Source: Caldilineales bacterium
Lineage (GTDB): Bacteria > Chloroflexota > Anaerolineae > JAAEKA01
Direction of reading: 5' to 3'
Assembly: GCA_041391245.1 (NCBI GenBank)
Contig: JAWKOJ010000016.1
Coordinates: 50,607 to 114,606, forward strand
DNA: 64,000 nt
Shown here: in pieces, positions 1,688-25,917 of the stretch
Layout: each line of letters opens with the position of its first letter
Position numbering within the stretch: position 1 is the stretch's first letter
The notes under the pieces: generated by a model
Seen by the model: the letters and a program-made list of their open reading frames with translations, nothing else
The model's database searches: none
Told to the model about the DNA's origin: nothing
Position numbers and translations under genes: made by a program

Positions 1688-1714
1688 AACATTTATTGGG
1701 GGAATCGAACAAAG

Positions 1715-1730
1715 TGTGACGAAGGTCACG
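1715..1730 (+). promoter_or_regulatory. CRP-type box TGTGA-N6-TCACG
   Basis: Read directly as TGTGACGAAGGTCACG, between the Crp gene stop (1687) and the small ORF start (1829). Confidence 0.4.
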
Positions 1731-1737
1731 GCCTTGC

Positions 1738-1753
1738 TGTGACGGCATTCATA
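1738..1753 (+). promoter_or_regulatory. CRP-type box TGTGA-N6-TCATA, extended TCATAGCG
   Basis: TGTGACGGCATTCATA followed by GCG. The same half-sites and GCG extension recur at 16798..16813. In both loci 21 nt separate the box from a weak -10-like hexamer (TATCCT at 1775..1780). Confidence 0.45.
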
Positions 1754-1828
1754 GCGCCGGCGCGCTGCGCGTGATATCCTTTGACTAGATGATCGGTCCC
1801 GCAACCTAGTTTCAAAGGAGGCAACACC

Positions 1829-2212: not shown

Positions 2213-2228
2213 CGCCAGGAGATCCACC

Positions 2229-2480
2229 ATGTCACAACACACCGTGCAAGCCGTCATTGGCAAGGCGATCACCGACACGTTGTTCCGCCAAAGCATGTTT
2301 GCCGATCCTGCGGCGACCCTGGCAAGCTATGAGCTTACGCCCGAAGAGATGGACGGCCTGCGCGGATCGACTTCGAGACAATGGAGTGTTGCGCGCGTGC
2401 TGGACGACCGCATCGCCAGGGGGCGATGGTGCGACAAGTCTCTGGCGGGTTCGCACGGAGGCCAGCAGCCGGCGCAATAG
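2229..2480 (+). CDS. Small leader-peptide-like protein P2
   Basis: ATG preceded by AGGAG. TVQAVIGKAITDTLFRQSMFADPAATLASYELTPEEMDGL matches the P1/P3 pattern. Between about 2364 and 2390 the family-like residues IDFETMEC lie in another frame, suggesting two nearby indels. Confidence 0.55.
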   Translation: MSQHTVQAVIGKAITDTLFRQSMFADPAATLASYELTPEEMDGLRGSTSRQWSVARVLDDRIARGRWCDKSLAGSHGGQQPAQ

Positions 2481-2504
2481 CCGCTGTCAAAGGAGAAGTG
2501 ACCC

Positions 2505-8565: not shown

Positions 8566-8600
8566 TGAGGCCGAATAGCATCAGGGTTGTGGAGGTACAC

Positions 8601-11600
8601 GAGCGAACAAGCAATCTGGAGCCGGCATCACCCTGTCACGCACGAGGCTCGCACAACGGTTGACGATCATTGCGTCTGCGCAGCAGCTCTGCGGGAGTCC
8701 GCCCGCCCGAGACGGCAAGGGGACGGTGGTTCGCCGACCTGGAGGTGACCGCCCTGGCGACATTGGCCGGAGAGTGCAGGCGCTGCCATGGGGTCACCCG
8801 CGAGCCCGGGGTGCTGAGGTACTCGGCGACGCAGCTGCCTCTCGCCGCGGCCACGAGGTTGCTCTCCGAGACGACGGTCGCTCTGGTGTGCGACGATCTG
8901 CCGGAAGGCGTGCATCTGCTGAACATGGGAAGGCACCAACTCAAGGACATGCGCCGTCCTGAGCAGATCCAGCAACTGGCCATTGATGGCATGCCGAGGA
9001 GTTCCCCTCCGCTCAACTCGCTGGTGTCGCTCGGCCAACCGGTCCTGGCAGCGGATGGCAACGGCGTGCGCGAGCCGCGCACCGTCGGCGCGTGCCGCCC
9101 TACTGCGGCCTGGCAGCCTTCCGCGAGCTGGACGAAGGCGTCTTCTTTGGCCGCGCAGGTGTTCACCGGCCAACTTGTCGACTCGGTGCGGCAGCAAGGG
9201 CTGGTGGCTGTGATCGTCGGACCGTCGGGGTCGGGCAAGTCGTCGGTGGTCTTCGCCGGGCTGCTGCCGCTTGCAGCGCAACGACGGCTGGCTGCTGGCA
9301 ACGCTGCGCCCCGGTGGACGACCGTTCCACGCGCTAAGTCGGCGCGCTGCTGCCGCTGCTGGACGACCAACTGGGCGAGACCGACCGGCTGATCGAGGTA
9401 GAAAAGCTGGCGCGCGCGCTGCGCGCGGGGGAGTTGTCGCTGCACCCGGTGGTGGAGCGGGTCTTGCAGCGACATCCAGACGCCCAACGGTTGCTGTTGG
9501 TCGTCGACCAGTTCGAGGAACTGTTCACCCAACGACCCAATCCCACCGACCAGCGCCAGTTCCTGGACGAGGGCTCGCTGGCAGCCAGCCGGGCGGCATC
9601 CGACCGATGGACATCGCGGTTGGTGGTGCTGTTGACAATGTGCGCTGATTTCATGGGGCAGGCGCTGACCCACCGTCCATTCGCCGACGCCCTTGCAGGA
9701 GGGATCGCTGCTGCTGGGTCCCATGAACCGCAGCGAGTTGCAGGCTGTGGTGGAGAAGCCGGCCGAGCCGCGCGGCGCAGCCTTCGAGACAGGCCTGGTG
9801 GCGAGGATCCTGGACGACGTGGGCGAGGAGCCTGGCAACCTGCCGCTGCTGGAGTTCGCCCTGTCGCTGCTGTGGGAGCGGATGGATCAGGGCTGGATGA
9901 CCCACGAGGCGTATGACGCCATCGGCCGGGTGGACGGCGTTGGCCCGCTATGCCGAGGATGTCTACAGCGGGTGCCGTTTGCCGGCCAACAGGCCGCCGC
10001 CCAGCGCATCTTCATCCAACTGGTCCAGCCGGGCGAAGGAACCGAGGACACGCGCCGGGTTGCCAGCCGGGCTGAGCTGGGCATGACCCGCATTGGCCGC
10101 TGGTGCAGTACCTGGCAGACAAGCGGCTGATCGTCACCGGCCAGGACGACGCCGGTCGCGCAGACGGTGGAGGTGGTGCACGAGGCGCTGATCCGCAGTT
10201 GGCAGCGGCTGCGTTTCCGGATCGGCGCGGATCGGGCCTCCTGCGCCTGGCAGGAGGGGCTGGTGGGCCGCCATGCGCCAGTGGCAGGCCAACGAGCATG
10301 ACGAGGGGGCGTTGTTACGCGGCGCGCCGCTGGTGGCCGCCGAAACCTGGCTGGCCGAACGTGGCGACGAACTCAGCCCGGCCATGAGCGCAGCTTCATC
10401 GAGACCAGCGTCGCCTTTCGCGCCAGCGAGCAAGCCCGGCGTGAGCGACGGCGGCGCATGATTATCGCCGGTCTGGCGAGTGGCCTTGTCATCGCCCTGA
10501 TCCCGCTGGGTGTGGCCATCTACCAGGGGAACGCCGCCACCAACAGCGCTGAGGAGGTCCAGGCCGCTGCCAGCAGTTGAGGCTGAACGTGCAAAAAAAA
10601 GAGATTGAGGTAGCCGCTCGCTCCACAGCCGAGGCACAGGCTTTGATCCAGGCCAGCATCGGTTTAGCATCTCAATCGGTGCTGGAGCCCAACGTGGGGT
10701 TCCAGAGCGTGCCGTTCCCTTTCGGGCTCTTGAGGCTGTGGAGAACTATCCGTATACCTGGCATGCTGAACGGGCTTTGAGCCAGGCTGTGTTCGGAAAC
10801 CATCTACGACAAGTTCTTGTCAACGACGGTGGCGTGAATACAGCCCTCCTTTGGTCACCCGACGGCACTCGACCGTGACGGCAACCGACAAGGAGGCAAG
10901 CATTTGGGATGCCGTAACTGGCGCTCTACTATATGTTCTTCAACCCGATAGTCCAATGTACGGTGCCGGTTGGTCTCCCGATGGGAGTCGCGCTTGGATC
11001 AACGGGAACGGTTTCGCATCGCTTTGGGATGCAATGACTGGGAGCACTTGTTTACACTCAGCAGCCACGAAGGCTGGTTGAGTATGTTGAGCTGGTCACC
11101 AGATGGCAGCCGTATTCCACAACCGGCCAGGATACCACAGCCCGGATATGGATGCTTCCACTGGACAGGAATTGGTCCTTTTTCTCAGGTCATGGTGCAG
11201 CCTCTTTCTTCCTGTGTTAGTCAATGCACACCAGAAACGTCGGCCTGGTCACCCAACGGCGAGCGTGTTGTTACTATGGACGAAGCTGGCGAAGTGTTCA
11301 TCTGGGACCCCGGGACCGGGCAGGAACTGCTCGAATTGTCGGGGCATACAGCGTGGGTCGACAGCGCGATCTGGTCACCGGACGGGCGGCGAATTGCTAC
11401 AAGCAGCGACGACAACACGTCGAGAATCTGGGATGCCAACACGGGCGAAGCAGTTGGTTCAAATACACTGGCGATGGCGGAGAGGCATACGCCAGATGGT
11501 CACCAAAAGGCGATCGAGTGTTGTTGATCTACAGCCTGAACGATCTGTTGGTAGTGTGGGACGCCAATAGCGGCGAGGAGATTGTCAACTTTCGCATCAT

Positions 11601-12817
11601 GAGAACAAGGTTCTGTGGGCCGATTGGTTCGCCGGATGGCTCACGCATTGTTTCGGGAGGTCAAGATGGCAAAGCCTTGATCTGGGACAGCGCCACCGGT
11701 GAGGCATTGTACGAATTCGCAGGCCATGCCAAGGATGTCAACTTCGTCAGATGGTCGCCAACCAACGATCAGATCGTCACAGCAAGCGACGACGGCACCG
11801 CCAAGATATGGAGCCTGACAGCCCAAATGACGGCTATGGAGATTCCGGGGACCCCGGTGGCGCTTGGGCGCTTGACTGGTCTCCCTCCGGTGATCGTGTT
11901 GCCCGGAACTATATGGACGGTTCAGTACACATATTCGACGCCGTGACGGGGGAGTGAGTTGGCAGCCACCGAGGCCCAAAGCGGACGCAATAGGGCAATC
12001 GTGAACGTCGAGTTCTCGCCCCTCGGGAGATGAAATATTGACTGCTGCCATTGGTGGGTTGGCAGCAGTCTATGACGCTAGCACAGGGGAAAAGCGAATA
12101 CAGGTTGGCGAGGAGACGACCTGGGGTTTCAACGATGCTGCCTGGTCTCCCAACGGTAACGAGTTTGCGACCGGCTCCTGGGACGGAAGCGTCCAGATAT
12201 GGAATGCGCAAAACTGGGGACTTGCGCTTGACTTCAACGAACATCGGGGCACCAGTTTCCGGTTGCTTTGGTCACGGCATACGCGAACGTATCGCGTCTA
12301 CCAGCGAAGGCCAGGCCATCATTTGGAACTCCTCGACCGGCGAGGTCTTGGCTAGTCTGTATCCAGAGGACTTCGAATTCGATCTCGGTCAACCTTCCTA
12401 GTCCCCCGATGGCACACGTCTGGCCCCTGCCAGCAGTGGACGGGAAGATCACTATCTGGGATACTGCTACGGGACAATCTCTCAACACACTTCCCGGCCA
12501 GCGGAGCTGCGATCGCGTTAGTCAGTTGGTTTCCAGAACAGGATCGCATCCTGACGTCCGACTGGGGCGGCAACATCAAAATATGGGACATCGCCAGGAA
12601 CAGAAGTTGCCAGCTTTGCTTTTCCCACAACAGCTTGGCAGGTCTTCTGTCGCCCGATGGCCGCCAGTTTGTGGAGGGCGTGTGGCCTGATGGCCCGCTG
12701 GTCATTGTCAATGTCTGGCAGAACCTGGGAAGAATTGAAAGATCTGGCCCAGGAGTGCTGCGTCTTCCGCGACCTGACGTCGGATGAGCGGCAGCAGCTC
12801 TGGTTTGCCGCCGGTAG
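8601..12817 (+). pseudogene. Cyclase - nSTAND1-like NTPase - WD40 repeat protein, frameshifted, start codon lost, cyclase domain partly deleted (copy 2)
   Basis: Fragments across frames: GLVAVIVGPSGSGKSSVVFAGLLP, LLLVVDQFEELFTQ, QRIFIQLVQPGEGTEDTRRVASRAELG. Many WD40 units, e.g. IVSGGQDGKALIWDSATGEALYEFAGHAKDVNFVRWSPTNDQIVTASDDGTAKIW. The 5' end is homologous at DNA level to the N-terminus of the 12857 gene but lacks the ATG. Confidence 0.7.
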
Positions 12818-12856
12818 TGCAGGCCGAATAGCAGACTGCGTTGTGGAGAATTCACG

Positions 12857-15800
12857 ATGTCCGAAGGTACCAATCTGGAAGCGGCGATCGCCGTGCTCGA
12901 AGCGCAACGAACCGTGCTCGGCGATGCAACGGTCGATGCGTCCATCGCTGTCCTGCGCCGGCAACTTGCGGAGTCCCGAAACGGCCCTGCCCGACGAACA
13001 GCGCAAGCTGGTGACGGTGCTGTTCGCCGACCTGGCCGGCTGGACCGCCCTGGGCGAGCAGTTGGACCCGGAGGAGGTGCAGGCCATCCAGCGCGCCTAC
13101 TTCGACGCGGTCACACCGCCCATCGAGCAGCACGGCGGCAGCGTCGAGAAGTACATCGGCGACGCAGTGCTGGCCGTCTTCGGGGTCCCGCAGGCGCACG
13201 AGGACGACCCCGAGCGCGCCGTCCGCGCCGCCCTGGCCATGCAGGACGCGGTCGCTGCCCTGAACACCACGCTCGCAACATCGTCCAACTCTTCCTCTGC
13301 CCTTCTGACCTCTGTTCTTCTGCCGTCTGTCCCTCTGCCACTCTCCCTGCGCATCGGCGTCCACACCGGCCTGGTGGTCAGCAGCGTGGACGAGAGTGGT
13401 GACTTCGTGGTCACCGGCGACACGGTCAACCTGGCATCGCGCCTGCAAAGCGCCGCCGAGCCGGGCACTGTGCTGATCAGTGCGGAGACGCACCGGCTGG
13501 CCGGCTCTGCATTCGAGACGGAAGCTGTCGGACCGCTGGCGGTCAAGGGCAAGGCCGAGCCGGTGTCCGCTTGGCGCGTCCTGGCCATCAAGCCCGCGGC
13601 GCCCAAGCTGCGCGGCATCGCCGGGCTGGACTCGCCGCTGGTCGGCCGAGCGGCTGAAATGACAGCCCTGCGCGAGGCGCTGAACTACCTGCAGCGCGGT
13701 GTCGGCGGCATCGTCACGGTCGTGGGCGAGGCCGGCATCGGCAAGTCGCGCCTGCTGGCCGAACTGCGCAAGTCGCAACAGCTTTCCGACCAGCGACCAG
13801 CGATCACCGTCCACTGGCTCGAGGGCCGCTGCCTCTCGTTCGGCGCCACTATTCCTTACCTGCTTTGGCTGGACGTGCTGCGCAGCGCGCTGGAGGTAAG
13901 CCTGGACGACCCGTCGGAGGAGGTGATCGGGCGACTGCGAGCCTGGACGGAGAACTTTTGCCCGGACCGCATCTCCGACGTCTTCCCCTATCTGGCCCGC
14001 CTGATGTCGCTGCCGCTGGACGCCGAGACCCTGGCCGACCTGACGGAGCTTGACGGGCAGACTCTCAAGCAACGCACCTTCCAGGCGGTAGAAATCGCGC
14101 TGACCTGCGCCGCCTACCGCCAGCCGCTGGCGGTGGTGTTGGAGGATCTGCACTGGGCCGATCCCAGCTCGCTGGAGTTGCTGCAACATCTCGTTCCTCT
14201 GATCGATCGCTCGGCGCTACTCTTGATCCTGGTCTTCCGGCCCCACGCCGACCACGGCTCGTGGATCGTGCGCGAGACCGCCGGTCGTGACTACCACCAT
14301 CGCCACACCGACTTGTGGCTGCAGCCGCTGTCGGCTGCTGACAGCGAGGCGCTGGTGGGCAACCTGCTGCGGGTCGACGCCTTGCCGCAGTCGCTGCGCT
14401 GGCGCATCCTCGGTCGCGCCGAGGGCAACCCCTTCTTCGTCGAGGAAGTGATCCGCACCCTGATCGACATGCAGGCCATCGCCTACGACCCAACCAGCGG
14501 CCGCTGGCTGGCCACCCGCGACCTGGCCGAGGTGCCGATCCCGGAGACGTTGCAAGGGGTGATCGCAGCCCGCATCGACCGCCTGCATGGCGACACCCGC
14601 CATGTGCTGCAACTGGCGTCGGTGATCGGTCGCATCTTTCTCTACCGCGTGCTGGCGGCCATTGCCGCGGAGGAACACGCACTGGACGACAGGCTGCTGG
14701 CCTTGCAGCGGGAGGAGTTGATCCGTGAGCGGGCGCGCATCCCCGAACTGGAGTACATCTTCAAGCACGAATTGACGCGCGAGGCGGCCTACAACGGCAT
14801 CCTCAAGCGCCAGCGCAAGCAGTTCCACCGCCAGGTGGCCGAAGCACTGGAGCGACTCTTTCCCGACAGGGTTGATGAAATGGCCGGACTGCTGGCATAC
14901 CACTGGGAGCGGGCTGAGGAGTTCGACAAGGCGACCGGATGCTTGTTGACGGCCGGCGAGCAGGCGCAGTTTGCCTATGCACTCCACGAGGCCGCCGGCT
15001 TCTACGAACGCGCCTTGCTGTTGCTTGCCGAGGGGCAAGACGCCGATCGCCAGGCGCACGTGTCTGCCAGGCTGGGGATAATCCACCAGACCGCCGGCGA
15101 CTACAAGCGGTCCCGGGCCGCCTTCCAAAACAGTTTTGTCTTCTGGGAGCAGGCGTCAAGCCACTATCTTCAGTGGGGATCCTCCTCGCCCCCGGCTCCC
15201 CATCCGCTCCGCTTTCCTGCAGACGAGCCTGAACGCCTTTGTCCGATTACCATACAAGGGGGCCATAACTGGCGCCTGCTCTATCACCTTTTCCGCGGCC
15301 TAAATCGCTGGTCCTCGGTCATGGATACCAATGCTTTGGCCGACGTGGCAAGTTCATGGGAAGTATCCGAAGACGGTCGGCGGTACCTTTTTGGTCTACG
15401 CCAGAACACGACATGGAGCGATGGCACGAGGGTTTCCGCTGGCGACTTTGAGTATGCATGGCGTTACCGACTCGATCCTGGCGTCGGTGCTGCCATGGCC
15501 CCAATGCTTGATTTCGTCCAAGGAGCGCGAGCCTTTCGTATGGGAGAAGAAACCGACCCCGCCAGCATTGGCGTTCATGCGCTGGATGACGTCACACTAT
15601 CGATAGAAACTGAGAAACCCTTGACTTTGCTGCCATATCTCGTAGCCAACCTACCCACTTACCCCGTTCCACGCCATACCATTGAACGCTACGGTGAGGC
15701 TTGGACCGATCCTGATAATCTGGTGACCAATGGTCCGTTTCGGCTGGAGTCCTGGCGGCGCGGCGAGTCGATGACCGTCGGTCTGGATCCTGGCTACGAC

Positions 15801-16712
15801 CGGCCGGTCTACGGCAACATACGGCAGGTGCAGTTGTACTTCCTGCCTGACGCCGAAGCGGACCTTGCGATGTACCAGGCCGATCTCCTGGATGTGATCG
15901 ATCTGTCAGGTTTCCCGCTGCCGATGTTGGACGATCTCCGAAGGCGTTACAGCGAGGAGTTTCGTACGTTATCCAGCTATGGCCTTGATTGCCTGATCTT
16001 TCAAACCTCGCGCCCGCCGTTCGATGACCCCCAGGTACGCCGCGCCTTCGTTCATGCCGTCGATATCGAAAAGCTGGCCAACAAAGTTCTGATGGGTTAT
16101 GAACTTCCGGCCACTATGGGCCTGTTCCCACCAGGCTTTCCCGGCCATTCATCGGCTAGCGTCCTGGCACACGATCCAGAACAGGCCCAAGCGTTGCTGG
16201 CCAAGGCTGGCTATCCGGCCGGTCGCGGCCTGCCCGTTGTCGAGCTTCTTGCCGGCGGCGCGCCGGGAACCGCGGCGTGGAGCCGTCGCACCGGGTTCAA
16301 CACCGCCATTCTTGATTACGTGGCGACGCAGTGGCGGGAGGTGCTAGGGGCCGACATAGACATCCAACTCATCACGTATCTTGCACTGCGCAGCCGGCTC
16401 AAAGTACTCGTTCCTGACGTAAGATTGACCTTCTTCGAGCCCAACTATCCCGATCCTGAAAGTTTCTTGAGCTTATTCAGCACGTTCAGCCTGTGGAAGG
16501 ATTCTCGCTGCGAGCACCTGCTGGCTGCTGCGAGAAAGGAATCAGACATCGCCAGAAGAATGGCGCTTTTTGAGGCAGCGCATAAACATATCCTGGACGA
16601 GGCAACCATAGTGCCCCTTCTCTACCGGTTGGACTACTACCTGATGAAGCCCTGGAATCGCGTTGGCAAGGGCGGACGGTATTGGCAGGACTTCGTGCTG
16701 CTGCCGCATTAG
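12857..16712 (+). CDS. Class III cyclase - AAA/STAND-type ATPase - TPR - family-5 solute-binding-protein (OppA/DppA-like) domain fusion; one N-terminal frameshift
   Basis: Cyclase motifs KLVTVLFADLAGWT, EKYIGDAVLAVFG and GDTVNLASRLQ; P-loop GEAGIGKSRL. The C-terminal ~480 aa carry SBP_bac_5-like sequence (WSDGTRVSAGDFEYAW, LVTNGPFRLESW). The first ~38 codons (MSEGTNLEAAIAVLEAQRTVLGD...) are in another frame than the rest, with the shift near 12965-12990. In-frame ATGs at 12924 and 12936 are alternative starts. Confidence 0.75.
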
Positions 16713-16882: not shown

Positions 16883-17128
16883 ATGACCAGACGCGCCGTG
16901 GAAGCTATCATTGGGAAGGCAGCGTTGGACGAGGAGTTTCGCAACGCCTTGTTTGCCGATCCTGACACGATCCTGACCGGGTTCCCGTTGACAAGAACTG
17001 AACGGGTGGCACTCATGGCAATCGACTCCGAGTCGCTGGAGTTCTTCGCCACCAGCCCCGGCGTGCTGATGGCCCAGTCCCTTCTTCTTCAACTCAACAC
17101 CCACGAGGGCATCATGCCGAGAGATTGA
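16883..17128 (+). CDS. Small leader-peptide-like protein P3
   Basis: ATG preceded by AAGGAGG. AVEAIIGKAALDEEFRNALFADPDTILTGFPLTRTERVAL matches P1/P2. Confidence 0.65.
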   Translation: MTRRAVEAIIGKAALDEEFRNALFADPDTILTGFPLTRTERVALMAIDSESLEFFATSPGVLMAQSLLLQLNTHEGIMPRD

Positions 17129-17328
17129 TGAGGGTCGGACAACCAGTCCGGCGCTGGCCGAACCGGTTTGTCGTTCCCGTTTGCCTGGAATCCCCCCTTC
17201 ACGTTCCCAGGTTGCCGCTTGCATGCGAACGACGATGTTTTCCGAGCTTGATTCCAACCCCTCTCCATCCATTTTGCCCCTGGTTTCCAATCAGCACAGC
17301 GTTGCAGCACAGCCGCCTCTCGACGCGG

Positions 17329-17357
17329 TTGCTTTTCTCTACCTTCTGAGCTATACT
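17329..17357 (+). promoter_or_regulatory. Sigma70-like promoter TTGCTT-N17-TATACT
   Basis: Read directly, about 80 nt upstream of the Crp paralog 2 start. Confidence 0.3.
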
Positions 17358-17436
17358 CCCTGTCGCCACATTCAATGGAAATGGTGGTTCGTCCCACAGT
17401 CCGATATACCACGCTGACCAATCGCGCTGGAGCACC

Positions 17437-18117
17437 ATGTCTCAGGTGGATCTGCTGCGCAAAGCCCCAATATTCGAAAGCCTCAGCGATGCTGAGCTGC
17501 AGGCGCTGGCTGCCAGCTTGAAGCAGCGAACTTTTGCGCGCGGCGTCGTGATCTTTCACAAAGGAAGTCCAGGGAACTCGCTTTACCTCATCGAGTCGGG
17601 CAAGGTGCGGATCTTCATCCTCAGCGACTCCGGCCAGGAAATCACCATCAACACTCATGGCCCGGAAGAGTGCTTTGGCGAGTTGGCGCTGCTGGATGGA
17701 CTGCCTCGCTCGGCCAGCGCGGTCAGCCTCGACCGCACGACCAGCTACGTGCTCCAGCGAGAAGACTTTCTGGCAATCCTTGAGTCGCATCCGGGCATGG
17801 TGCGCGCAATTCTTGCACTGCTGAGCGGAAGGGTTCGCCACGCGACCGCGTACGCCGAAAGCCTGGCCTTCCTGGATGTCCAGAGCCGGATCGCGGCGAC
17901 CTTGCTGGCACTGGCCGACCGCCATGGCATCGAGCGGGAAGGGATCGAGATCGACCTGCGGCTCACGCAGAGCGATCTCGCGAGCTATGTCGCGGCCTCC
18001 CGCGAGAGCGTCAACAAGGCGCTGGGCTGGCTGCGCGACCAGGGTCTCGTGGAAGTGGACGGACACACCGTCATCGTGCTCGATGCACAAAGACTGCGCG
18101 ATCTGATCCAGTACTGA
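17437..18117 (+). CDS. Crp/Fnr-family transcription factor, paralog 2
   Basis: 226 aa. FGELALLDGLPRSA and SRESVNKALGWLRDQGLV. Paralog of 1007..1687. Confidence 0.9.
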   Translation: MSQVDLLRKAPIFESLSDAELQALAASLKQRTFARGVVIFHKGSPGNSLYLIESGKVRIFILSDSGQEITINTHGPEECFGELALLDGLPRSASAVSLDRTTSYVLQREDFLAILESHPGMVRAILALLSGRVRHATAYAESLAFLDVQSRIAATLLALADRHGIEREGIEIDLRLTQSDLASYVAASRESVNKALGWLRDQGLVEVDGHTVIVLDAQRLRDLIQY

Positions 18118-18130
18118 CAGGAGTAGACAG

Positions 18131-18983
18131 ATGCAGACTCGTCGTTTTGGCCGCACAGGCCATATGAGCACCGTAGCCATCTTTGGCGCGGCCGCGCTGT
18201 GGAAGGCCACGCAGGCAGAGGCTGACGCCGTCGTGGAACAGGTGATAGCCGCTGGCGTCAACCACTTCGACGTTGCTCCCTCCTACGGACTGGCTGAAGA
18301 GCGCCTGGGACCGTGGATGCCGCGCCTGCGCGACCAGATTTTCCTCGGCTGCAAGACCATGGAGCGGGATGCGGCCGGCGCCGCCGCGGAGTTGCGTCGC
18401 TCGCTGGACCTGCTGCAAGTCGACTCGTTCGACCTATACCAGATCCACGCCGTGGAGACCATGGCCGATCTGGACGCAGCAACCCGGTCCGGCGGCGCGC
18501 TGGACGCAATCGTCAAGGCGCGACGAGGGGCTGACCAGGCACATTGGAATCACCGGCCACGGCGTCCAGTCGCCGGCCGTATTTCGCGAGGCACTGCGCC
18601 GCTTCGACTTCGACTCGGTGCTGTTCCCCATCAACTTCGTGCAGTTTGCCAACCCTGAGTACCGGCGCCACGCCGAGGCGCTGCTGGGCTCGTGCCGATC
18701 AAAAGATGTGGGCACCATGATCATCAAGGCGATCACGCGCAGTCCGTGGGGCGACATGCCAAAGACGCACCAGACCTGGTATCGGCCGTTCACCGACCCG
18801 GACGACATTCAACGCGCGGTCAACTTCGCGTTGTCGCTGGATGTAACCGGCCTCTGCACGGCCGGCGACCCCAAGGTGCTGCCGCTGATGCTGCGCGCCT
18901 GCCAGGAGTTCCAGCCGCTGGACGTGGCGCAGCGCCAGGCAATGATTGATACGGCCGCTACGTACGAGCCCCTTTTCGTCTAG
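18131..18983 (+). CDS. Aldo/keto reductase, interrupted by one frameshift near 18520
   Basis: N-terminal part in ORF 18131..18658 (RFGRTGHMSTVAIFGAAAL, DLYQIHAV). The continuation EGLTRHIGITGHG... is in ORF 18273..18983. The junction at GCGCG looks like a 1-nt deletion. Confidence 0.75.
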
Positions 18984-19202
18984 ACCATCGCCAGAAACGG
19001 GGTGTGTTGAATCTGGTTGGTCGGCGTCGGTCGAGTAGCGGGTCCGACACTCTGGTCTCGCACCTTTGCGCCGCACGCATGTGCAGGTGTCCGACGCGGT
19101 CCTTCTATGGTGCCTTACCTCAATCCGCTACCCCACTCCGGGGTGCTTCGCAATCGACCGACGTTTCGTTCTCTGCACCCTCCACCCATCTCAAACACGC
19201 CC

Positions 19203-19235
19203 TAAACAAAACCGCGCCTCGTGTTGAGACGCGGT
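19203..19235 (-). terminator. Rho-independent terminator downstream of the histidine kinase gene
   Basis: Minus-strand hairpin ACCGCGTCTC/GAGGCGCGGT followed by TTTTGTTT. Confidence 0.45.
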
Positions 19236-19267
19236 GGCTGCTACGGCCGCGATCGGGAGGCGGGCTG

Positions 19268-20233
19268 TCAGGATGGCAGATGCTGGGCTGCCGGCAGGGG
19301 CCGCTCCGCCGGAGCGTTGCTGCCAATCACTGCTGGCAGGCTGACGGTGAAGGTGCTGCCCTGATTGATGCCACGACTGGTCACGCGCACGACCCCATCA
19401 TGAGCGTGCACGATGCTTTTCACCAGCGCCAGTCCTATTCCAACCCCGTCGTCGGAACGAGTCAGACCGCGGTCGACCTGGTAGAAGCGATCGAATATCT
19501 GATCGATCTCATCCTTCGATATGCCTATGCCCTGATCGGTGATGGCGATATGGACATAGCCGTCGCGCGCCCAGACACGCAATCGGATCAGGGAGGATGG
19601 CCGGCCACCAGTGGCGTTTCCAGAGGGAGGCGCGCTACGTGCCCTTGACCGGCATCCCGCCTCGAGACCATATTTCACAGCGTTATCCAGCAAATCATCG
19701 AAGGCCTGATGCAGCATCGCCGGGTCGCCCATGATCAGCGGCAGACTTCCTGCGGTTTCTAAGGCCACCGCCCCTCCTGCGTGCTCAATCTGCGGCTGCC
19801 ACTTTTCGACAACGGTCTCGATCAGGGCGTCCAGCGGAACGGGGATCTTGTCGATCGTCCCATTGTCAACCATCTGCAGCTTGAGCATCCGCTCGACCAT
19901 GGACTGCAGGCGCCGGCCCTGTTCCAGAATGACTTCTGCGGCCTTTGCCTGCTCCTTGGTAAGCTCGCCCCAATACTCGCCGCTCAGGGTCTCGGCGTAG
20001 CCAATGATCAGTGTCAGCGGCGACCGGAACTCGTGAGAAACGTTCTGCAATATCTCATCTCTTGACCGCAAGGCGCGCGCCAACTGCACGGTGACGTCAG
20101 ACAACGCCATCCGCAGTACCTCCGGATCCTGTGTGCCGGCCGTTTCACCGGCTAGTGGCGCCTTGATCAAGGCTGGCTTGCGGGCGTCAACCGGCGGTGA
20201 GGCGCCGGCAGCAGAAAACGGTTGCAGAACCAT
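19268..20233 (-). CDS. Sensor histidine kinase (HisKA + HATPase_c) without TM or recognisable sensor domain; no response regulator nearby
   Basis: H-box SHEFRSPLT, N-box DNAVKY, G-boxes DQGIGI and GIGLALV. Confidence 0.85.
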   Translation of the reverse strand: MVLQPFSAAGASPPVDARKPALIKAPLAGETAGTQDPEVLRMALSDVTVQLARALRSRDEILQNVSHEFRSPLTLIIGYAETLSGEYWGELTKEQAKAAEVILEQGRRLQSMVERMLKLQMVDNGTIDKIPVPLDALIETVVEKWQPQIEHAGGAVALETAGSLPLIMGDPAMLHQAFDDLLDNAVKYGLEAGCRSRARSAPPSGNATGGRPSSLIRLRVWARDGYVHIAITDQGIGISKDEIDQIFDRFYQVDRGLTRSDDGVGIGLALVKSIVHAHDGVVRVTSRGINQGSTFTVSLPAVIGSNAPAERPLPAAQHLPS

Positions 20234-20262
20234 GGACGATGCTCCACAGATGGGCTGTCGCC

Positions 20263-20565
20263 CTACATGGCGGCCTGGGCGAGCGCAGGGGAATCCTCGG
20301 CCATTGCGAGCTGTTTCAGGGTCGCGTCGGTCACGTGTCGCCCGTGCTGGCGGAAGTCAATCCATTGACCCACCTGACGCGCGAACTGGCTGAAGTCCTG
20401 GGCGCGAATGGTGCCCAGCAGTTCCCACTCATCCTGATTCAGTGTGAATCCTTGACCGAAGAACCCAATTTCGGCTGCCCGGCGCGGGTCGCGCAGGAGT
20501 TGGGCGCGAAACTGATTGTTGATTGCGCCGGCACAAACCAGACGCTCTAATTCGCTATGCCGCAT
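20263..20565 (-). CDS. Small leader-peptide-like protein P4 (divergent member of the P1-P3 family)
   Basis: LERLVCAGAINNQFRAQLLRDPRRAAE...FTLNQDEWELL follows the same pattern as P1-P3. The start overlaps the upstream gene end by 19 nt. Confidence 0.55.
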   Translation of the reverse strand: MRHSELERLVCAGAINNQFRAQLLRDPRRAAEIGFFGQGFTLNQDEWELLGTIRAQDFSQFARQVGQWIDFRQHGRHVTDATLKQLAMAEDSPALAQAAM

Positions 20566-21158
20566 GATTCATCTCCATTCACGATCTGTCCTGGGCTGGA
20601 ACTTTCTGTTGAGGCAGTAAACGCCTGCCAGAACAGAGCTGCGAAACCAGCCAGGATGATGAGGTCTCCTACGCTGAACGCCGTCGGCAGCGGGAAAGGC
20701 GGCGGCACGACGATGGCGTCTGAGAGAAACCTGAGATTGATCTGATCAGCCGGTAGGATGATGTCCTTGGAGCCTTGTCGCAGCGTACCCGCGGGCCAGT
20801 CCGCTATCGTTGTGCCCGGATGAAGTCTGGTCACAGCCTCTTGCGAAATTGGCATGAATCCACCGTTGGAGGCAACCACTACGAAATTGAGCAGGAAGCC
20901 GGCCATCAGCAGGCGCGCGCCAACGTGACGCCAATTCAGGGCACAGAACAGAAACAGCAGAGAATATGACGCCAGGAACAGAAGGCTGCGCCATCCTGCT
21001 CCGCCCCACGCTTGCACCAGAGGAAGCTGCAAGATGAGAGCACAGGGCGCCAACCATAGGGCTCGCAACTCTATCTCAATGGGGCCGGTGGACCTGCGAC
21101 GACCGATCAGGGCGACTGCCGCAAGTATGACCAGGAGCAGCAGCGCAAAGAGCAACAT
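20547..21158 (-). CDS. Polytopic membrane protein, DUF5317-like
   Basis: 203 aa with 5-6 hydrophobic helices. N-terminus MLLFALLLLVILAAVALIGRRR...ELRALWLAP recalls DUF5317; the family assignment is from memory. Confidence 0.6.
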   Translation of the reverse strand: MLLFALLLLVILAAVALIGRRRSTGPIEIELRALWLAPCALILQLPLVQAWGGAGWRSLLFLASYSLLFLFCALNWRHVGARLLMAGFLLNFVVVASNGGFMPISQEAVTRLHPGTTIADWPAGTLRQGSKDIILPADQINLRFLSDAIVVPPPFPLPTAFSVGDLIILAGFAALFWQAFTASTESSSPGQIVNGDESCGIAN

Positions 21159-21171
21159 TACCTAGGTGGCG

Positions 21172-21318
21172 CTACCAGGGCAATATGAAGCCGTAGTGCG
21201 GTGCATCCGGCGCAGCGCCGGCTACTGCCAGCACAACGATTGTGATCACCAGGAGTCCAACACTGGCCTTTTTCGGCTCACTCGCGGCAGCATACGCCTT
21301 GTTGATCAGGTTTTTCAT
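21172..21318 (-). CDS. 48-aa single-pass membrane peptide (below the ORF-track length cutoff)
   Basis: My own translation: MKNLINKAYAAASEPKKASVGLLVITIVVLAVAGAAPDAPHYGFILPW. ATG preceded by AAGGAGA. First gene of the operon, 13 nt upstream of the DUF5317-like gene. Confidence 0.45.
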   Translation of the reverse strand: MKNLINKAYAAASEPKKASVGLLVITIVVLAVAGAAPDAPHYGFILPW

Positions 21319-21405
21319 GATGTGTCTCCTTCGAATTGGGGTGAACGTCGCCGCTGACTAACCAATACTGCGGTTTTCAGCGCTAATTTTATCTTACTCT
21401 GGTAA

Positions 21406-21433
21406 TGTTACTGCCTTGTTACTGCGATGTTAC
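21406..21433 (-). promoter_or_regulatory. Three direct repeats (GTAACA on the coding strand) with exact 11-bp periodicity; candidate SARP/BTAD-regulator binding site
   Basis: TGTTAC at 21406, 21417 and 21428 on the + strand. On the minus strand the last heptamer GTAACAT is followed by 8 nt and then TAAGAT (-10-like). About 90 nt upstream of the 21318 start. Confidence 0.45.
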
Positions 21434-21573
21434 CGGCGCCGGCCGCAGCAAGCAAGACAGCAGGATGTACTGTTGCCAAATCGCGGCCATCTTGGAGACT
21501 TGGCAAGACCCTGTCAGGAAAACGCCACTCGGCGGCCTGGAAAAAAACCTGTCCCGAGCGGCTTTGGGCAGAT

Positions 21574-21601
21574 CAAAACAAAGGCCGCCCGACGGGCAGC
21601 C
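21574..21601 (-). terminator. Rho-independent terminator after the regulator gene
   Basis: Minus-strand hairpin GGCUGCCC-GUC-GGGCGGCC followed by UUUGUUUUG, about 30 nt after the stop at 21634. Confidence 0.5.
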
Positions 21602-21633
21602 TCTGCAGTTCCGGAGACATGTCTTCGGCGCTG

Positions 21634-24600
21634 CTAGCGGTTCAATTCCAGAATCTGACGGTATGCCACCTGAATCGCGGGACCGGGATCAACCCCCAGA
21701 TCATCGCGCAGCAGCCTTCTGAGTTGCCGGAACGACTCCATGGCCGCGGCCCGATTGCCGCTGCTGGCCTGGGCTGACATCAGCCCCTGCCAGGCTTGCT
21801 CGTGATAAGGCTGGCGGGTCAGCACCTGCCGGAACAGGTCGATCGCCAGATCGTTCCGGCCGAGCTGGCTGCGCAGCTGGGCCAGGGCCAGAAGTGCGGA
21901 CTGGTAGTCGAGCGAGAGCTTCTCCCGCTCCGCTGTTACCCAGCCGGCAGTTACTTGCTCCATGAGATCGCCAACGTAGAGATCGATGGCCTGCTGGTAG
22001 CGCTGCGCCCGCGCGGCCGGATCGTCCCCGATACGGTGCACTTCTTGCAACAGTCGCCGGAACTCCCAGACATCATACCAGACGCCCGCGGGCAGCTCAA
22101 GGGACAGCCAACCCGACTCGGTGCCGACAGCACAGATCGCGCGCCGGAGGCGATATAGCGTCACCCGCAGCGAGCCATCGGCCTTCTGCAACGGCCAGTC
22201 GGGCCAAAACTGTTCGATAACCTCCTCTTTGCGAACCGGCTGCGGGTGACGGCTCAACAGGAAGAAGAAGAGTTCCTTGACCTGCTCGCGCTGTGCTGCC
22301 AGCTCGTCGTCGCCGAGAAGAACATGGCTTCGTCCAAACCCGTAGATGCGAAGCGAATGCACGTCGGAATGGACTGTCGCGGCGACATCAATCTCCGCGA
22401 CAGAACGGGTCTGATCGATCCGCTTCAACGCCTGCTCGAACCGCCGCCCGCTGGGCAGTCGCTGTGCTCCCAGCCGCAGCAAGCCGGGCATCTGCCGTCC
22501 ATCGACGGAAATGAAGAAATCGTAGCCCAGTTGGCTGGCGAGCCCATCGACGCGCGCCAGATGTTGCAGCGCGTCCGCTTCCCGGCCGGTTAGAAATGCG
22601 CTGAACCCCAGGAACAGCTCGGTCTGCGCCAGTTCCAGCGTGTAGCCGCCGGCGCTCATGACGTCTCTGGCGGCGTGCAAGCAGGTCAGAGCGGTTTGGT
22701 AGTCGCCGCGGTCCTGCGCCAGCGCTCCCTGGCGCAACTTGCACAGCCCGCCCAGATAGTTGGATCCGATCTTCTCTGCGCGGGCGGCTGCCTGCGACAG
22801 TTTGGCTTCGGACGCCGCACCGTTCTTCATCTGACGCAGCGTCTCCCCTTGACCACACAGGCTATAGACCACAAAGAACTCGTCGCGAACCTGCTCAGCC
22901 AGGTTCAGACTCTGGCCAAAGAGCGTCATGGCTGCATCGCGTGCACCCCGGTCGCGCTGCAGGTCGGCCTGGCTGGCCAGGATGACACTTTGCAGCCGCA
23001 ACAGCCCGCTCTGTTCTGCCGTCTCGAAAGCGCTGGCAAGTATCTGCTCAGCCTCACCCAGCTCGCCCTGAAGATAGTAGACCAGCCCCAGGCTGTTGAG
23101 CGTGTTTGCCAGCCAGCCGGGATTGCCGAGTTGAGCCCAGCACCCGAGCGCCTTGCGGTAATAGTGCACCGCCTCGCTGATCTTGCCGGCGGCGCGGTGC
23201 GAGATGCCAAGGTTGTGATACGTGCCGGCCGCGTTCTGAGTATCGCCGATGGCCACAAACATCTCAGAAGCGCTGGTCAGGCTTGCAATTGCCTCGGGCA
23301 GTTGGCCAAGCCCGTAGTAGCACAGGCCCTGACAATCCAGCAAGCGGCCGTGCAGCCCCATCCTGTCCTGCGCGCTTGTGATCCTTTCCAGCAACCCCAG
23401 CGCCGTTTCGATGTGCTGCAACGACTCGGTGTAGTTCCCGCGACGGTGCATCGCAATGGCCAGGCGCCACATAGTCTCGACCTCGTCAGGCACCTGTCCG
23501 CGTCGGCGAAATGTATCCAGTGCAAGCGCAAAGAGAGGCTGGGCAGATTCAAGGTCGCCGCGTTCGACGTAGAGTGTTGCCCGCCACGCCAGCAGGCGCG
23601 GGCGGGCGCGCACCACCGGATCGGGCAGCGCGTCCAACCACTGTGTGAGCGAATCCCAGCGGCGGGCGTCGAGAAGGATGCGCCCGGTGTGTTCCAACGT
23701 TTCGGCAGCCTCCTCGACCATCTCCAGTTCGAGGTAGATTGCAACGGTGCGCTGCCATTCGCCGCGTGCGGCGTAAAGCTGTGCACTGCGCACCAGTAGC
23801 TCCCGGTAGCGCGCAGGATCATCCTGACGCAGCCGATGGCGCAGAAAGTCGCGGTACAGGTGATGAAAGGAATAGACCTGATTGCCGGCGTGGCTCAGAA
23901 AGACGTTGCTGCGCGCCATCCGGCCAAGCATCGCACCAGAGTCGCTCCTCGCCAGCAACTGGTCGCAATCACGCGGAGTCATGCTGTCCAGCACCGACGC
24001 TTCCAGCATGAACTCACGGGCCGGAGCGGTCTGAAAACTGAGCACCTGCTCAGCCAGGTAGTCATACACCCGGCCGCTGACTTCGGGCAGGTTGACCACG
24101 CCTTTAACCAACTCGGTCCACGTCGCCTGATGGGCCGTCAGAAGAATGCCGGTGATCCAGCCATCGCTGTGCCGGGCAAGTTCTTCCGCCCGCTCGTCGG
24201 ACATCGCGAGATCATAGCTTTGCTGAACCAACTGCTGAATCTCGGATGGGGTGAACTTGAGCTCTTCCTGGCTGATGCCGATCATCTGGCCGCGGGCGGC
24301 CATCAGGGACTGGTCAGGGATTGCGGGCAGGGTCCGGCTGGCGAGCATGAGGTGGAAGCTGTCGTCGGTGTAGCGCAGCAGCAGGGAGAGGAAGTCGTTG
24401 ATCGGCTCGCTGGCTTCCAGGTTGTGAAAATCATCCAGCACCACCACGAAAAAATCGGCGATCTCGTAGATCTCGTTGGCTAGCACCGCAGCCAGGGAAT
24501 AGACGTTCGCCCCGACATCGTTGGTGTTGTCCAGCGCCGCCTGCACGCGCACACCGAATCCGGGAAACTGTACGCCAATGGAGGCAACGAGGTGGCTGAG

Positions 24601-24921
24601 AAAAACCCGTGGATCCGCGTCGTATTCGTCGAGCGCGTACCAGCAAACCGGCACATCCAACTGATGCGCCAGATCGGTGAGCACGCTGGTCTTCCCATAC
24701 CCTGCCGGCGCCGAGACCACGATCAGTTTGCGGTCGATCTGCCCGTGCAGAAAGTCCACCAGGCGCGGCCGGTGCAGCAGTTCGCCTCTGCGTGAGGGAA
24801 CCAGCAGTTTTGTAGCGATGATCGGTGTGGACGCAGACATCGTCGCGGTATCGTTGGCTGGCTGCTCAAAAAGTGACAGGTCGGTAGGTTTTGGTGACGC
24901 CCGGAGAAATCGGAGGGACAA
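21634..24921 (-). CDS. Large transcriptional regulator: MalT-like P-loop ATPase - TPR - winged-helix (OmpR-type) - BTAD (SARP-like C-terminus)
   Basis: Walker A SAPAGYGKTS with long TPR-like repeats. C-terminus: LRIYGFGRSHVLLGDDEL...VRKEEVIEQFWPD...LRVTLYRLRRAI, then BTAD-like YQQAIDLYVGDLM...WVTAEREKL...LRDDLGVDPGP. An alternative start is at 24840. Confidence 0.85.
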   Translation of the reverse strand: MSLRFLRASPKPTDLSLFEQPANDTATMSASTPIIATKLLVPSRRGELLHRPRLVDFLHGQIDRKLIVVSAPAGYGKTSVLTDLAHQLDVPVCWYALDEYDADPRVFLSHLVASIGVQFPGFGVRVQAALDNTNDVGANVYSLAAVLANEIYEIADFFVVVLDDFHNLEASEPINDFLSLLLRYTDDSFHLMLASRTLPAIPDQSLMAARGQMIGISQEELKFTPSEIQQLVQQSYDLAMSDERAEELARHSDGWITGILLTAHQATWTELVKGVVNLPEVSGRVYDYLAEQVLSFQTAPAREFMLEASVLDSMTPRDCDQLLARSDSGAMLGRMARSNVFLSHAGNQVYSFHHLYRDFLRHRLRQDDPARYRELLVRSAQLYAARGEWQRTVAIYLELEMVEEAAETLEHTGRILLDARRWDSLTQWLDALPDPVVRARPRLLAWRATLYVERGDLESAQPLFALALDTFRRRGQVPDEVETMWRLAIAMHRRGNYTESLQHIETALGLLERITSAQDRMGLHGRLLDCQGLCYYGLGQLPEAIASLTSASEMFVAIGDTQNAAGTYHNLGISHRAAGKISEAVHYYRKALGCWAQLGNPGWLANTLNSLGLVYYLQGELGEAEQILASAFETAEQSGLLRLQSVILASQADLQRDRGARDAAMTLFGQSLNLAEQVRDEFFVVYSLCGQGETLRQMKNGAASEAKLSQAAARAEKIGSNYLGGLCKLRQGALAQDRGDYQTALTCLHAARDVMSAGGYTLELAQTELFLGFSAFLTGREADALQHLARVDGLASQLGYDFFISVDGRQMPGLLRLGAQRLPSGRRFEQALKRIDQTRSVAEIDVAATVHSDVHSLRIYGFGRSHVLLGDDELAAQREQVKELFFFLLSRHPQPVRKEEVIEQFWPDWPLQKADGSLRVTLYRLRRAICAVGTESGWLSLELPAGVWYDVWEFRRLLQEVHRIGDDPAARAQRYQQAIDLYVGDLMEQVTAGWVTAEREKLSLDYQSALLALAQLRSQLGRNDLAIDLFRQVLTRQPYHEQAWQGLMSAQASSGNRAAAMESFRQLRRLLRDDLGVDPGPAIQVAYRQILELNR

Positions 24922-25083: not shown

Positions 25084-25266
25084 CATGCTGTGAGATACGC
25101 ATAGCGCAATCCGATCACTTGGGTTTTCTCGCTCACGCCGCTTCCGGCACGACCGGCAGCGTTGCCGCCAATTGGCCGTAACTTTCCTCAGACGCCTGCG
25201 TCATGATTTTTGCTATCGAGTAGGGCTTCTAAAGCGGGATTTCGAGTTCCAAAGGAGGAAACTGTC

Positions 25267-25917
25267 ATGCGAATCACTCGGCGATCGACCATTGCAGTTG
25301 CGCTTCTGATAGCCGCGCTGCTAATGATGGCTCTCGTGCCGGCCGCGCAGGCTGCACCGGAGGCCGTTCCGCCGGCTTCGTGCGGATATTGGTACACTGT
25401 TCAGGCGGGCCAGGGCTGGTACAGTGTGTCGGCTGCCACAGGCGTGTCCGTATCAGCGCTGCAGGCTGCCAATCCTGGCAAGGTCCGCCCGCCCAACAAC
25501 TGGCTCTACGTTGGCGAGAGCCTGTGGATTCCGTGCGGCGGCCCACCGCCACCACCTCCGCCACCTAGCTGTGGCTACTGGTACACCGTACAGCCTGGCC
25601 AGGGCTGGTACAGCGTCTCCGCAGCGACAGGTGTTTCGGTGTGGTCCTTGCAGGCAGCCAATCCCGGAAAGGTTCGTCCGCCCAACAACTGGCTGTATGC
25701 CGGCGAGAAGCTGTGGATACCGTGTGGCGCGCCGCCACCGCCACCGCCGCCGCCCCCAAGCTGCAGCTACTGGTACACCGTGCAGGCCGGACAGGGTTGG
25801 TATAGCGTCTCCGCTGCGACAGGCGTTTCGGTGTCGGCCCTGCAGGCGTGCAATCCGGGCAAGGTTCGCCCGCCCAACTACTGGCTCTACACCGGCGAGA
25901 AGCTGTGTATCCCGTAG
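25267..25917 (+). CDS. Secreted protein with three LysM domains joined by poly-proline linkers
   Basis: ATG after AAGGAGG. Signal peptide MRITRRSTIAVALLIAALLMMALVPAAQA. Three repeats of CGYWYTVQ.GQGWYSVSAATGVSV..LQA.NPGKVRPPN.WLY.GE.LWIPC, separated by P8-10 runs. Confidence 0.85.
   Translation: MRITRRSTIAVALLIAALLMMALVPAAQAAPEAVPPASCGYWYTVQAGQGWYSVSAATGVSVSALQAANPGKVRPPNNWLYVGESLWIPCGGPPPPPPPPSCGYWYTVQPGQGWYSVSAATGVSVWSLQAANPGKVRPPNNWLYAGEKLWIPCGAPPPPPPPPPSCSYWYTVQAGQGWYSVSAATGVSVSALQACNPGKVRPPNYWLYTGEKLCIP
25378..25917 (+). repeat. Three in-frame tandem repeats of 189-192 nt (the LysM units)
   Basis: Unit starts at 25378, 25567 and 25759, read from the sequence. Confidence 0.8.

Follow-up and report, generated by a model that had tools for sequence, protein, structure and literature searches.

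Several described bacterial systems contain parts that are found side by side in the locus analysed here. MgrB and SafA are small membrane-protein modulators of PhoQ, and Sda and KipI are anti-kinases. The SARPs of Streptomyces (AfsR, ActII-ORF4 and the 'large' SARPs) combine a winged helix with a BTAD domain, which in AfsR is N-terminal and joined to an NTPase and tetratricopeptide repeats (TPR). The STAND ATPase MalT carries a LuxR-type DNA-binding domain instead. The RRNPP peptide quorum-sensing systems of the Firmicutes (Rap/Phr, PlcR/PapR and NprR/NprX) have TPR-containing cytoplasmic regulators, and MASE9 (PF20972) is a membrane input domain of enzymes of cyclic di-GMP (c-di-GMP) turnover. 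The locus in question lies at positions 19,268 to 24,921 of a 64,000-nucleotide (nt) stretch of DNA from a member of the Caldilineales (Chloroflexota, Anaerolineae; contig JAWKOJ010000016.1 of assembly GCA_041391245.1, positions 50,607 to 114,606), which is called the window below. On its minus strand a large STAND-TPR-SARP regulator is followed by four genes for a micropeptide, a DUF5317 membrane protein, a small soluble protein (P4) and a soluble histidine kinase.

Judged from gene content and order, these genes are a conserved five-gene unit of many Anaerolineae, here in a copy with a kinase as its output; the usual output is predicted to be a c-di-GMP-degrading enzyme. Our reading of this cassette is a membrane and signalling operon controlled by the STAND-SARP protein and ending in an exchangeable output, and we put its overall probability at about 0.6. 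Its two parts differ in strength: that the locus forms one regulon and one cassette is very probable, and the roles which we assign to the individual products are tentative. The coordinates are collected in Table 1; the five genes, the two terminator-like hairpins and the three phased repeats all lie where an earlier note on this DNA had placed them.

Table 1. Genes and predicted control elements of the cassette (positions in the window)
Feature	Position	Strand	Length and description
Regulator	21634-24921	(-)	1095 aa; STAND NTPase, TPR region, winged helix and BTAD
Terminator-like hairpin closing the regulator unit	21578-21606	(-)	13 pairs, 8 of them G-C, then a T-rich tail
Putative operator	21406-21433	(-)	GTAACA three times at 11-bp spacing; single match in the window, in 0 of 100 shuffles
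-10-like hexamer	21391-21396	(-)	TAAGAT; 8 bp separate it from the third heptamer GTAACAT upstream
Micropeptide	21172-21318	(-)	48 aa; single hydrophobic helix after a basic N-terminus, then a conserved G/A-A-P junction and a variable tail
DUF5317 protein	20547-21158	(-)	203 aa; five predicted transmembrane helices, beta-rich loop at 98-162
P4	20263-20565	(-)	100 aa; cytoplasmic, all-helical, Os1348/NHLP clan (LigA-like domain), variable 30-residue tail
Histidine kinase	19268-20233	(-)	321 aa, soluble; HisKA (58-125) and HATPase_c (169-301) only
Terminator-like hairpin closing the operon	19211-19235	(-)	10 pairs, 7 of them G-C, then a T-run

The evidence for a travelling unit comes from two surveys and one close relative. 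Of 301 genomes sampled from the phylum, 91 contain DUF5317 (a tally that includes one unpublished genome, G227). In the first survey 16-kb stretches around the 20 best DUF5317 matches were inspected; at 11 of them a full-length regulator homolog immediately preceded DUF5317 and shared its strand, and in the relatives too a small one-helix open reading frame (ORF) was present between regulator and DUF5317. A profile built from P4 and its three relatives in the window (P1 to P3, see below) detected a P4-like ORF beside DUF5317 at 10 of these 11 regulator-linked loci, at none of the other nine, and at none of 20 loci with long DUF5317 ORFs. At 6 of the 11 the gene after P4 specified an HD-GYP phosphodiesterase. 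For the second survey (the census) species-representative genomes were scanned with a DUF5317 alignment and the best 80 of 217 relatives were kept; since it is centred on DUF5317 and one peptide pattern, it samples the cassette-type subfamily. The titles of its records name Chloroflexota/Chloroflexi, Anaerolineae/Anaerolineales/Anaerolineaceae, Anaerolinea, Bellilinea, Chloroflexia and Chloroflexus. The regulator is directly upstream of DUF5317 at 58 of the 60 loci where the upstream flank extends 3.6 kb or more, a one-helix micro-ORF separates the two at 67 of 68 regulator-linked loci, and a P4-family ORF adjoins DUF5317 at 76 of the 78 loci with room for one. That the regulator, the putative operator, the micropeptide, DUF5317 and P4 stay together from one species to the next is strongly supported.

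The same five genes stand in the same order in a sister species of the same genus (G303), with identities of 76.5% (regulator), 81% (micropeptide), 81% (DUF5317), 84% (P4) and 69% (kinase). The corresponding dN/dS values are 0.10 for the regulator, 0.12 for the micropeptide, 0.14 for DUF5317 and 0.08 for the kinase, and P4 has a dN of 0.085 with saturated dS. All five genes are accordingly under purifying selection, and we conclude from this comparison that both small ORFs are real genes. The earlier note had staked its operon on conservation of gene order in relatives, and the order held both in the census and in the sister species. It also held against the least favoured explanation, chance neighbours without shared function and small ORFs that are not genes: the scans for terminator-like and promoter-like sites do not exceed shuffle expectation here, as that explanation would have it, but an order kept over 80 species-level loci, purifying selection on both small ORFs and a triple repeat absent from all shuffles allow it to be dismissed.

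Full-text searches returned no paper with DUF5317, or with NHLP and HD-GYP together, and within that scope, from which subscription-only papers fall out, the cassette is new to the literature. Publications on Os1348, Frankia_peptide and PF14407 contained nothing on it, and those on BTAD or SARP proteins of Chloroflexi nothing relevant by title or abstract.

The regulator is, with strong support from its profile matches, a MalT-type STAND NTPase that continues into a TPR region and ends in a DNA-binding module of SARP type. Pfam assigns AAA_22/AAA_16, numerous TPR matches and BTAD (E 5e-27, residues 950-1091), preceded by a weak match to the OmpR-type winged helix Trans_reg_C (residues 883-933, E 3.9e-4, under the gathering score), which gives the succession of winged helix and BTAD that characterizes a SARP. 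Among PDB profiles the N-terminus matches MalT (8bob, E 2.4e-27, residues 34-388) and the C-terminus AfsR (8hvr, E 6.2e-10, residues 870-1092) and EmbR (2fez, E 1e-9). The MalT model NF003420 aligns with residues 34-467 (E 1.9e-61), and a helical-repeat sensor region follows as in MalT. It does not qualify as MalT itself: the score of 208.2 bits is far under the curated cut-off of 537, and in place of a LuxR-type C-terminal domain, which was not found, the regulator has one of SARP type. The likeness to AfsR lies in the coupling of this module to an NTPase and TPR. Here, however, the module occupies about residues 870-1092 of 1095, at the opposite end from its position in AfsR and the large SARPs, the NTPase is MalT-like, the host belongs to the Chloroflexota rather than the Actinomycetota, and the predicted target is a membrane and signalling operon and not an antibiotic gene cluster.

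That the regulator gene forms its own transcription unit is likewise strongly supported by the predicted signals around it. The terminator which the earlier note had placed at its end was recovered as a hairpin, and a comparable hairpin and T-run was recognized by eye 3' of the regulator gene at five other loci (L036, L037, L038, L040 and L041). Behind it comes the promoter region with three phased repeats, also described in that note. At up to two mismatches the triple GTAACA repeat is the sole such site in the 5.2-Mb assembly, and no second copy that would mark a further regulon member occurs in the genome. As passages of one SARP paper describe it, direct repeats in SARP target promoters are 11 or 22 bp apart and the 3' repeat lies 8 bp from the -10 element (PMC10936776). 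The putative operator and predicted -10 hexamer of the window agree exactly with this rule in both spacing and offset. So does the spacer of the sister species, where GTAAC(A/G) occurs three times at 11-bp spacing and is followed after 8 bp by TACGAT, the remaining spacer having diverged. A consensus promoter scan of the window did not call TAAGAT, probably because a -35 hexamer is absent.

Tandem direct repeats of period 11 or 12 with at least 9 of 10 positions matching were present in 9 of the 12 spacers of a first set, each attained in at most 6 of 500 shuffles, and in 38 of the 66 spacers of the census, a count that leaves out L195, where a run of N had been scored. Several spacers under the threshold contain recognizable copies of the same repeat unit. 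In the relatives the distance from the end of the repeats is about 8-12 nt to a TAnnnT-like hexamer and about 45-60 nt to the start codon of the micropeptide. Unlike the SARP promoters, 30 of the 39 relatives' spacers that score at least 9 of 10 have a period of 12 bp (the 39 include the L195 artefact, of period 11). The sequence of the unit varies among sub-lineages of the cassette, and a third copy is present in five spacers and a partial third in one, a pattern such as co-evolving regulator-operator pairs would leave.

With successive intervals of 13 nt, -19 nt (an overlap) and 29 nt, the four following genes bear out the tight packing reported before, and no terminator-like site was found on the minus strand within 19268-21318. 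The closing hairpin falls within the interval 19203-19235 proposed for it. The terminator scan as a whole returned 6 sites against 4.6 expected, so that their number alone is not significant. Together with the conservation of the order, these features support the view that micropeptide, DUF5317, P4 and kinase behave as one conserved, tightly packed operon. Contigs from two wastewater metatranscriptome libraries match parts of it: one covers 21167-21373 without differences and so takes in the complete micropeptide gene with a portion of the leader, two lie over the DUF5317 gene (20802-21091, no differences; 20573-20742, 2 differences) and one over the kinase gene (19302-19506, 3 differences). 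None of these contigs lies over P4 and only a 33-nt piece over the regulator; as the runs were chosen with this very stretch, relative expression cannot be read from them. A DNA contig of the same study extends to 21433, and the RNA contig ends at 21373, downstream of the predicted -10 element, a weak hint of transcription from there. No RNA element or riboswitch was matched by Rfam in the whole window at gathering scores, or in 19000-21800 at E ≤ 1, and base composition gave no island signal around the cassette.

The first two products of the operon are membrane proteins, as the earlier note had it. Within lineages the micropeptide is well conserved in its cytoplasmic N-terminal part. Its neighbour matches PF17248 over profile positions 1-150 of 151 (E 8.8e-29, 100.9 bits against a gathering score of 25) and is thus a DUF5317 protein. 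In 55 such sequences Q44, G87, N91, N98, M102, P103, L145, D147, S162, G164, D165 and G171 are invariant and K131 nearly so. By the positive-inside rule the loop and the conserved polar residues would face outward, as would the G/A-A-P junction and variable tail of the micropeptide. The AlphaFold2 model (mean pLDDT 87, pTM 0.78) found no match under E 1 with Foldseek, and the best VIA-align hit (Z 7.4) concerned generic helical segments only. A structure search of the Atlas gave only DUF5317 clusters, fusions of DUF5317 to transporters of the major facilitator superfamily (MFS), mainly from Actinomycetota, and, at a TM of 0.50, the N-terminal membrane part of SpoIIE-family phosphatases. In its accompaniment of HD-GYP enzymes by a small polytopic membrane module DUF5317 is comparable to MASE9, and at L101 a MASE9-HD-GYP gene lies directly upstream of it. 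The cassette protein differs in being separate from the enzyme rather than its N-terminal domain, and DUF5317 also occurs fused to MFS proteins.

P4 was said to belong to the same small-protein family as P1 to P3, and this is confirmed by a shared match to NF038399, borderline for P4 (40.7 bits with hmmscan and 40.0 in a six-frame search, at a cut-off of 40) and clear for P1 (1829-2212; 69 bits), P2 (ca. 2229-2480; 57) and P3 (16883-17128; 60). No other match to this model occurs in the genome. The kinship is visible with hidden Markov models only; a tblastn search of the window with P4 returned no paralog. A profile of the P4 family matches the structure of Os1348 (6lk7, E 2.5e-7, residues 5-67), and the AlphaFold2 model of P4 is all-helical, with a folded domain of about 65 residues and variable ends. 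With this model Foldseek found nothing, and VIA-align placed 6lk7 at Z 4.1, within the noise from which LigA (1b4u), DesB and borosin precursor entries also emerge (Z 4.0-4.5). In predictions of a complex with DUF5317 and the micropeptide, P4 scored 0.00 and 0.30, the mark being 0.32, in runs without controls; these scores weigh neither for nor against binding. Passages on Os1348 of Pseudomonas sp. Os17 describe an 85-aa dimer, encoded beside GNAT, HEXXH and SagB-type genes, which affects antibiotic activity and is discussed as a bacteriocin precursor (PMC7726476). The LigA-like group of ECOD takes in the Os1348 family, and its members are characterized, in passages of the paper concerned, as accessory subunits or leaders of ribosomally synthesized and post-translationally modified peptides (RiPPs) (PMC12353581).

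The relatives of P4 have surroundings of their own. P1 and P2 stand between a Crp-family regulator (1007-1687) and a 476-aa polytopic membrane protein (2505-3935) with an HExxH-type motif and no Pfam match, all within 1007-3935 on the plus strand. Homologs of this membrane protein adjoin NHLP-clan genes at L124 (E 8.7e-47) and at L131 (E 1.8e-18), where a Crp gene is present too, and the stretch looks like a separate peptide-maturation or export unit. P3 (81 aa) lies directly upstream of a second Crp-family gene (16883-18117, plus strand, P3 included), convergent with the kinase; the pair is retained at the same place in the sister species, where Crp2 is 87% identical.

The kinase was described as lacking both a transmembrane segment and a sensor domain, and this is correct: HisKA (E 1.9e-16) and HATPase_c (E 5.3e-24) are its only domains, the H-box histidine is visible in the translation, and neither a PAS or GAF domain nor a hydrophobic segment was found. 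Nor does the window encode any of the genome's 42 receiver-domain (PF00072) matches, in agreement with the claim that no response regulator is at hand. The presence of an 'orphan, sensor-less' kinase is explicable by its cassette. After P4, the 80 census loci have an HD-GYP gene (39), a histidine kinase (11), a receiver-only protein (11), an MFS gene (1), another gene or none (14), or too little sequence (4), so that in 61 of the 80 the slot is occupied by a soluble signalling protein. Since the gene after P4 varies among loci, we regard the kinase as one interchangeable output and not as the conserved partner of P4.

At one locus classed as 'other' (L173) a HisKA match is present. Ten complete ORFs were recovered from 12 loci with kinase hits; nine have HisKA and HATPase_c, six PAS, one GAF and five a fused receiver, and one (L157) is a double receiver. 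In a crude hydrophobicity count none of the ten contains a transmembrane-like segment, and the bare HisKA-HATPase_c architecture is common to the window and the sister species only. In a third flavour of the cassette (L140, L142, L149, L154, L159 and L164) the P4-like gene is followed by a single-domain receiver gene and then by a double-receiver gene, with no kinase in the locus; L141 and L146 have a single receiver and L157 a double one. A search with the receiver proteins of L140 for a partner of the kinase in the present genome produced generic matches of 30-37% only. The order is altered at L098 (genome G338), where regulator, NHLP-clan gene and DUF5317 are followed by a soluble PAS-HisKA-HATPase-receiver hybrid kinase.

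An unrooted FastTree phylogeny of the regulators from 39 loci and the window, the other 41 loci having yielded no complete regulator ORF, divides into two well-supported halves, one of them with HD-GYP outputs in 18 of 20 cases, and output type tracks clades. The window groups with one HD-GYP locus and one 'other' locus (support 99), apart from the clade of PAS kinases, and the kinase label requires at least two changes on the tree. We conclude that outputs have been swapped around a conserved core. By comparison with the PhoQ modulators and the anti-kinases, a one-helix peptide of some 48 residues and a small soluble protein are likewise encoded with a histidine kinase in the window; the cassette kinase differs in being soluble and in not being a conserved partner.

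We propose the following mechanism, in which binding of the regulator to the repeats, a single four-gene transcript and contacts among the products are all suppositions. The STAND regulator would be the primary sensor, an ATP-dependent switch that binds a ligand via its TPR region. Once switched on, it would bind the repeats and recruit RNA polymerase to a promoter without a -35 element. The operon would then yield a membrane module of micropeptide and DUF5317, with P4 as a cytoplasmic accessory having the protein-binding LigA-like fold. The activity of the input-less kinase would be set by its abundance, and possibly also by docking to the membrane module, and the kinase would hand its phosphate to an unlinked response regulator.

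Several observations weigh against this interpretation. Kinases and HD-GYP enzymes of other cassettes often bear their own PAS or GAF domains, which may make control of the output independent of the membrane module, and 14 of the 80 loci have no recognized signalling gene in the output slot. In 28 of the 66 census spacers no repeats reach the 9-of-10 threshold. Among close kin the distribution of the cassette is patchy. Of 17 other genomes from the family one was found to have it; DUF5317 was not detected in two further members of the genus, which are 85% and 75% complete, nor in 14 genomes from the family's other genera. DUF5317 also occurs without regulator, micropeptide or P4, and 12 of the 20 long DUF5317 ORFs sampled across the phylum (L056-L069) have it as the N-terminal domain of MFS_1/MFS_3 transporters of 640-740 aa; a role linked to transport fits these fusions at least as well as a sensory one. 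Finally, the RNA contigs cannot reveal strand, ends or a single transcript, and carry-over of DNA may account for them.

The best of the alternatives is a peptide-signal loop reminiscent of RRNPP systems, which we nevertheless judge unlikely. Either DUF5317, as a peptidase, or signal peptidase would release the tail of the micropeptide outside at G-A-P; the TPR region of the regulator would sense this tail or P4, and the operon would be auto-induced, with the kinase as a co-induced effector. As in RRNPP systems, a TPR-containing cytoplasmic regulator is encoded beside a small exported-looking peptide gene, possibly under its control. The 67 peptides compared resemble signal peptides in their basic N-terminus, hydrophobic core, small residues before A-P and short, lineage-variable tail; D147, S162, D165 and K131 of DUF5317 would lie outside, DUF5317 is repeatedly joined to MFS exporters, the TPR region is large, and an operator unique in the genome is what a dedicated loop would be expected to have. 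Yet the cytoplasmic N-terminus of the micropeptide is conserved beyond the needs of a disposable signal peptide, the structural searches described above gave no match of DUF5317 to a solved peptidase, no peptide importer is linked to the cassette, and P4 has no export signal. The comparison, drawn from gene arrangement and peptide layout, also breaks down over the DNA-binding domain, the STAND ATPase, the phylum and the lack of a linked Opp importer, and the additional membrane protein and P4 have no counterpart in RRNPP systems. A fuller version of the idea is a self-contained, previously undescribed circuit, in which the micropeptide is a pro-signal cut at G-A-P by DUF5317 on the outer face and read by the STAND-TPR-SARP protein with P4 as co-factor, leading to auto-induction, with the various outputs plugged in; we consider this doubtful.

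According to the earlier note, P4 may serve the kinase as ligand or adaptor, and P1 to P3 may do the same for Crp proteins; P4 could then be an anti-kinase directed at the dimerization and histidine phosphotransfer domain, in the manner of Sda or KipI. P4 and the kinase do adjoin, with 29 nt between them, and the sister species retains both; each of the four NHLP-clan genes of the genome has transcription or signalling genes close by in the window, and the P3-Crp2 pair is conserved. The 30-residue C-terminal tail of P4 in this lineage, missing from most HD-GYP-linked homologs, would also suit a kinase-specific role, but the conserved portion of P4 is the folded domain and not the tail. As for the co-occurrence of DUF5317, P-family and HisKA genes, which the note proposed to examine, P4-like genes stay by DUF5317 whatever the output. 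The pairing with Crp survives as P3-Crp2 in the sister species and does not extend further: a Crp gene adjoins an NHLP-clan gene at 1 of 29 loci fetched elsewhere in the phylum, a sample dominated by one family. Because the constant neighbours of P4 are the core genes (regulator, micropeptide and DUF5317) and not the output, a dedicated partnership of P4 with the kinase is improbable.

Less probable still is that the cassette makes a RiPP, with P4 as a precursor carrying an NHLP-type leader and DUF5317 as a maturation, export or immunity protein. Such a function would accord with the match of P4 to the NHLP-clan model of Os1348, with a weak match to the Frankia_peptide model, and with the genes around the prototype and its effect on antibiotic activity. 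The neighbours of P4, however, are DUF5317 and signalling proteins, and no modifying enzyme belongs to the cassette at any of the scanned loci. Most P4 homologs stop 5-15 residues past the folded domain, their tails being short, variable or absent, with neither a Gly-Gly site nor a core rich in Cys, Ser or Thr.

Other parts of the window deserve brief mention. Between the two Crp/NHLP gene pairs an unusual 1351-aa fusion is encoded (12657-16712, plus strand), which joins an adenylate/guanylate cyclase to an AAA_16 STAND-type ATPase and a family-5 solute-binding domain of the peptide-binding type. An aldo-keto reductase gene between Crp2 and the kinase (18131-18983, plus strand) appears split over the overlapping frames 18131-18658, which has the Pfam match, and 18273-18983; this may be a frameshift or an assembly error. 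At 25210-25917 (plus strand) there is a secreted-looking protein with three near-identical LysM repeats and poly-proline linkers. The region from about 4400 to 12700 contains many long ORFs without Pfam matches together with nSTAND1 (5555-6328) and WD40 (11224-11946) fragments, possibly the remains of large STAND genes.

To return to the operon and its putative STAND-SARP control, the cassette provides a firm and testable context for four unstudied parts: a micropeptide family, DUF5317, a non-RiPP branch of NHLP/LigA-like proteins and a SARP of reversed architecture. It would extend the SARP promoter rule of phased repeats 8 bp from the -10 element beyond the Actinomycetota. Should the self-contained circuit outlined above prove true, DUF5317 would be a new family of juxtamembrane peptidases or binding proteins built around Asp147, Ser162, Asp165 and the nearly invariant Lys131, and one input would be converted into c-di-GMP turnover or a phosphorelay by swapping the output in the last slot. 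The exchange of the last gene among HD-GYP, kinase and receiver is a natural experiment, which argues that the conserved core is an input or regulatory device rather than an enzyme pathway. The predicted system has one regulator, one operator and one operon, and it is widespread in the Anaerolineae, whose members abound in wastewater and sediments and are difficult to work with.

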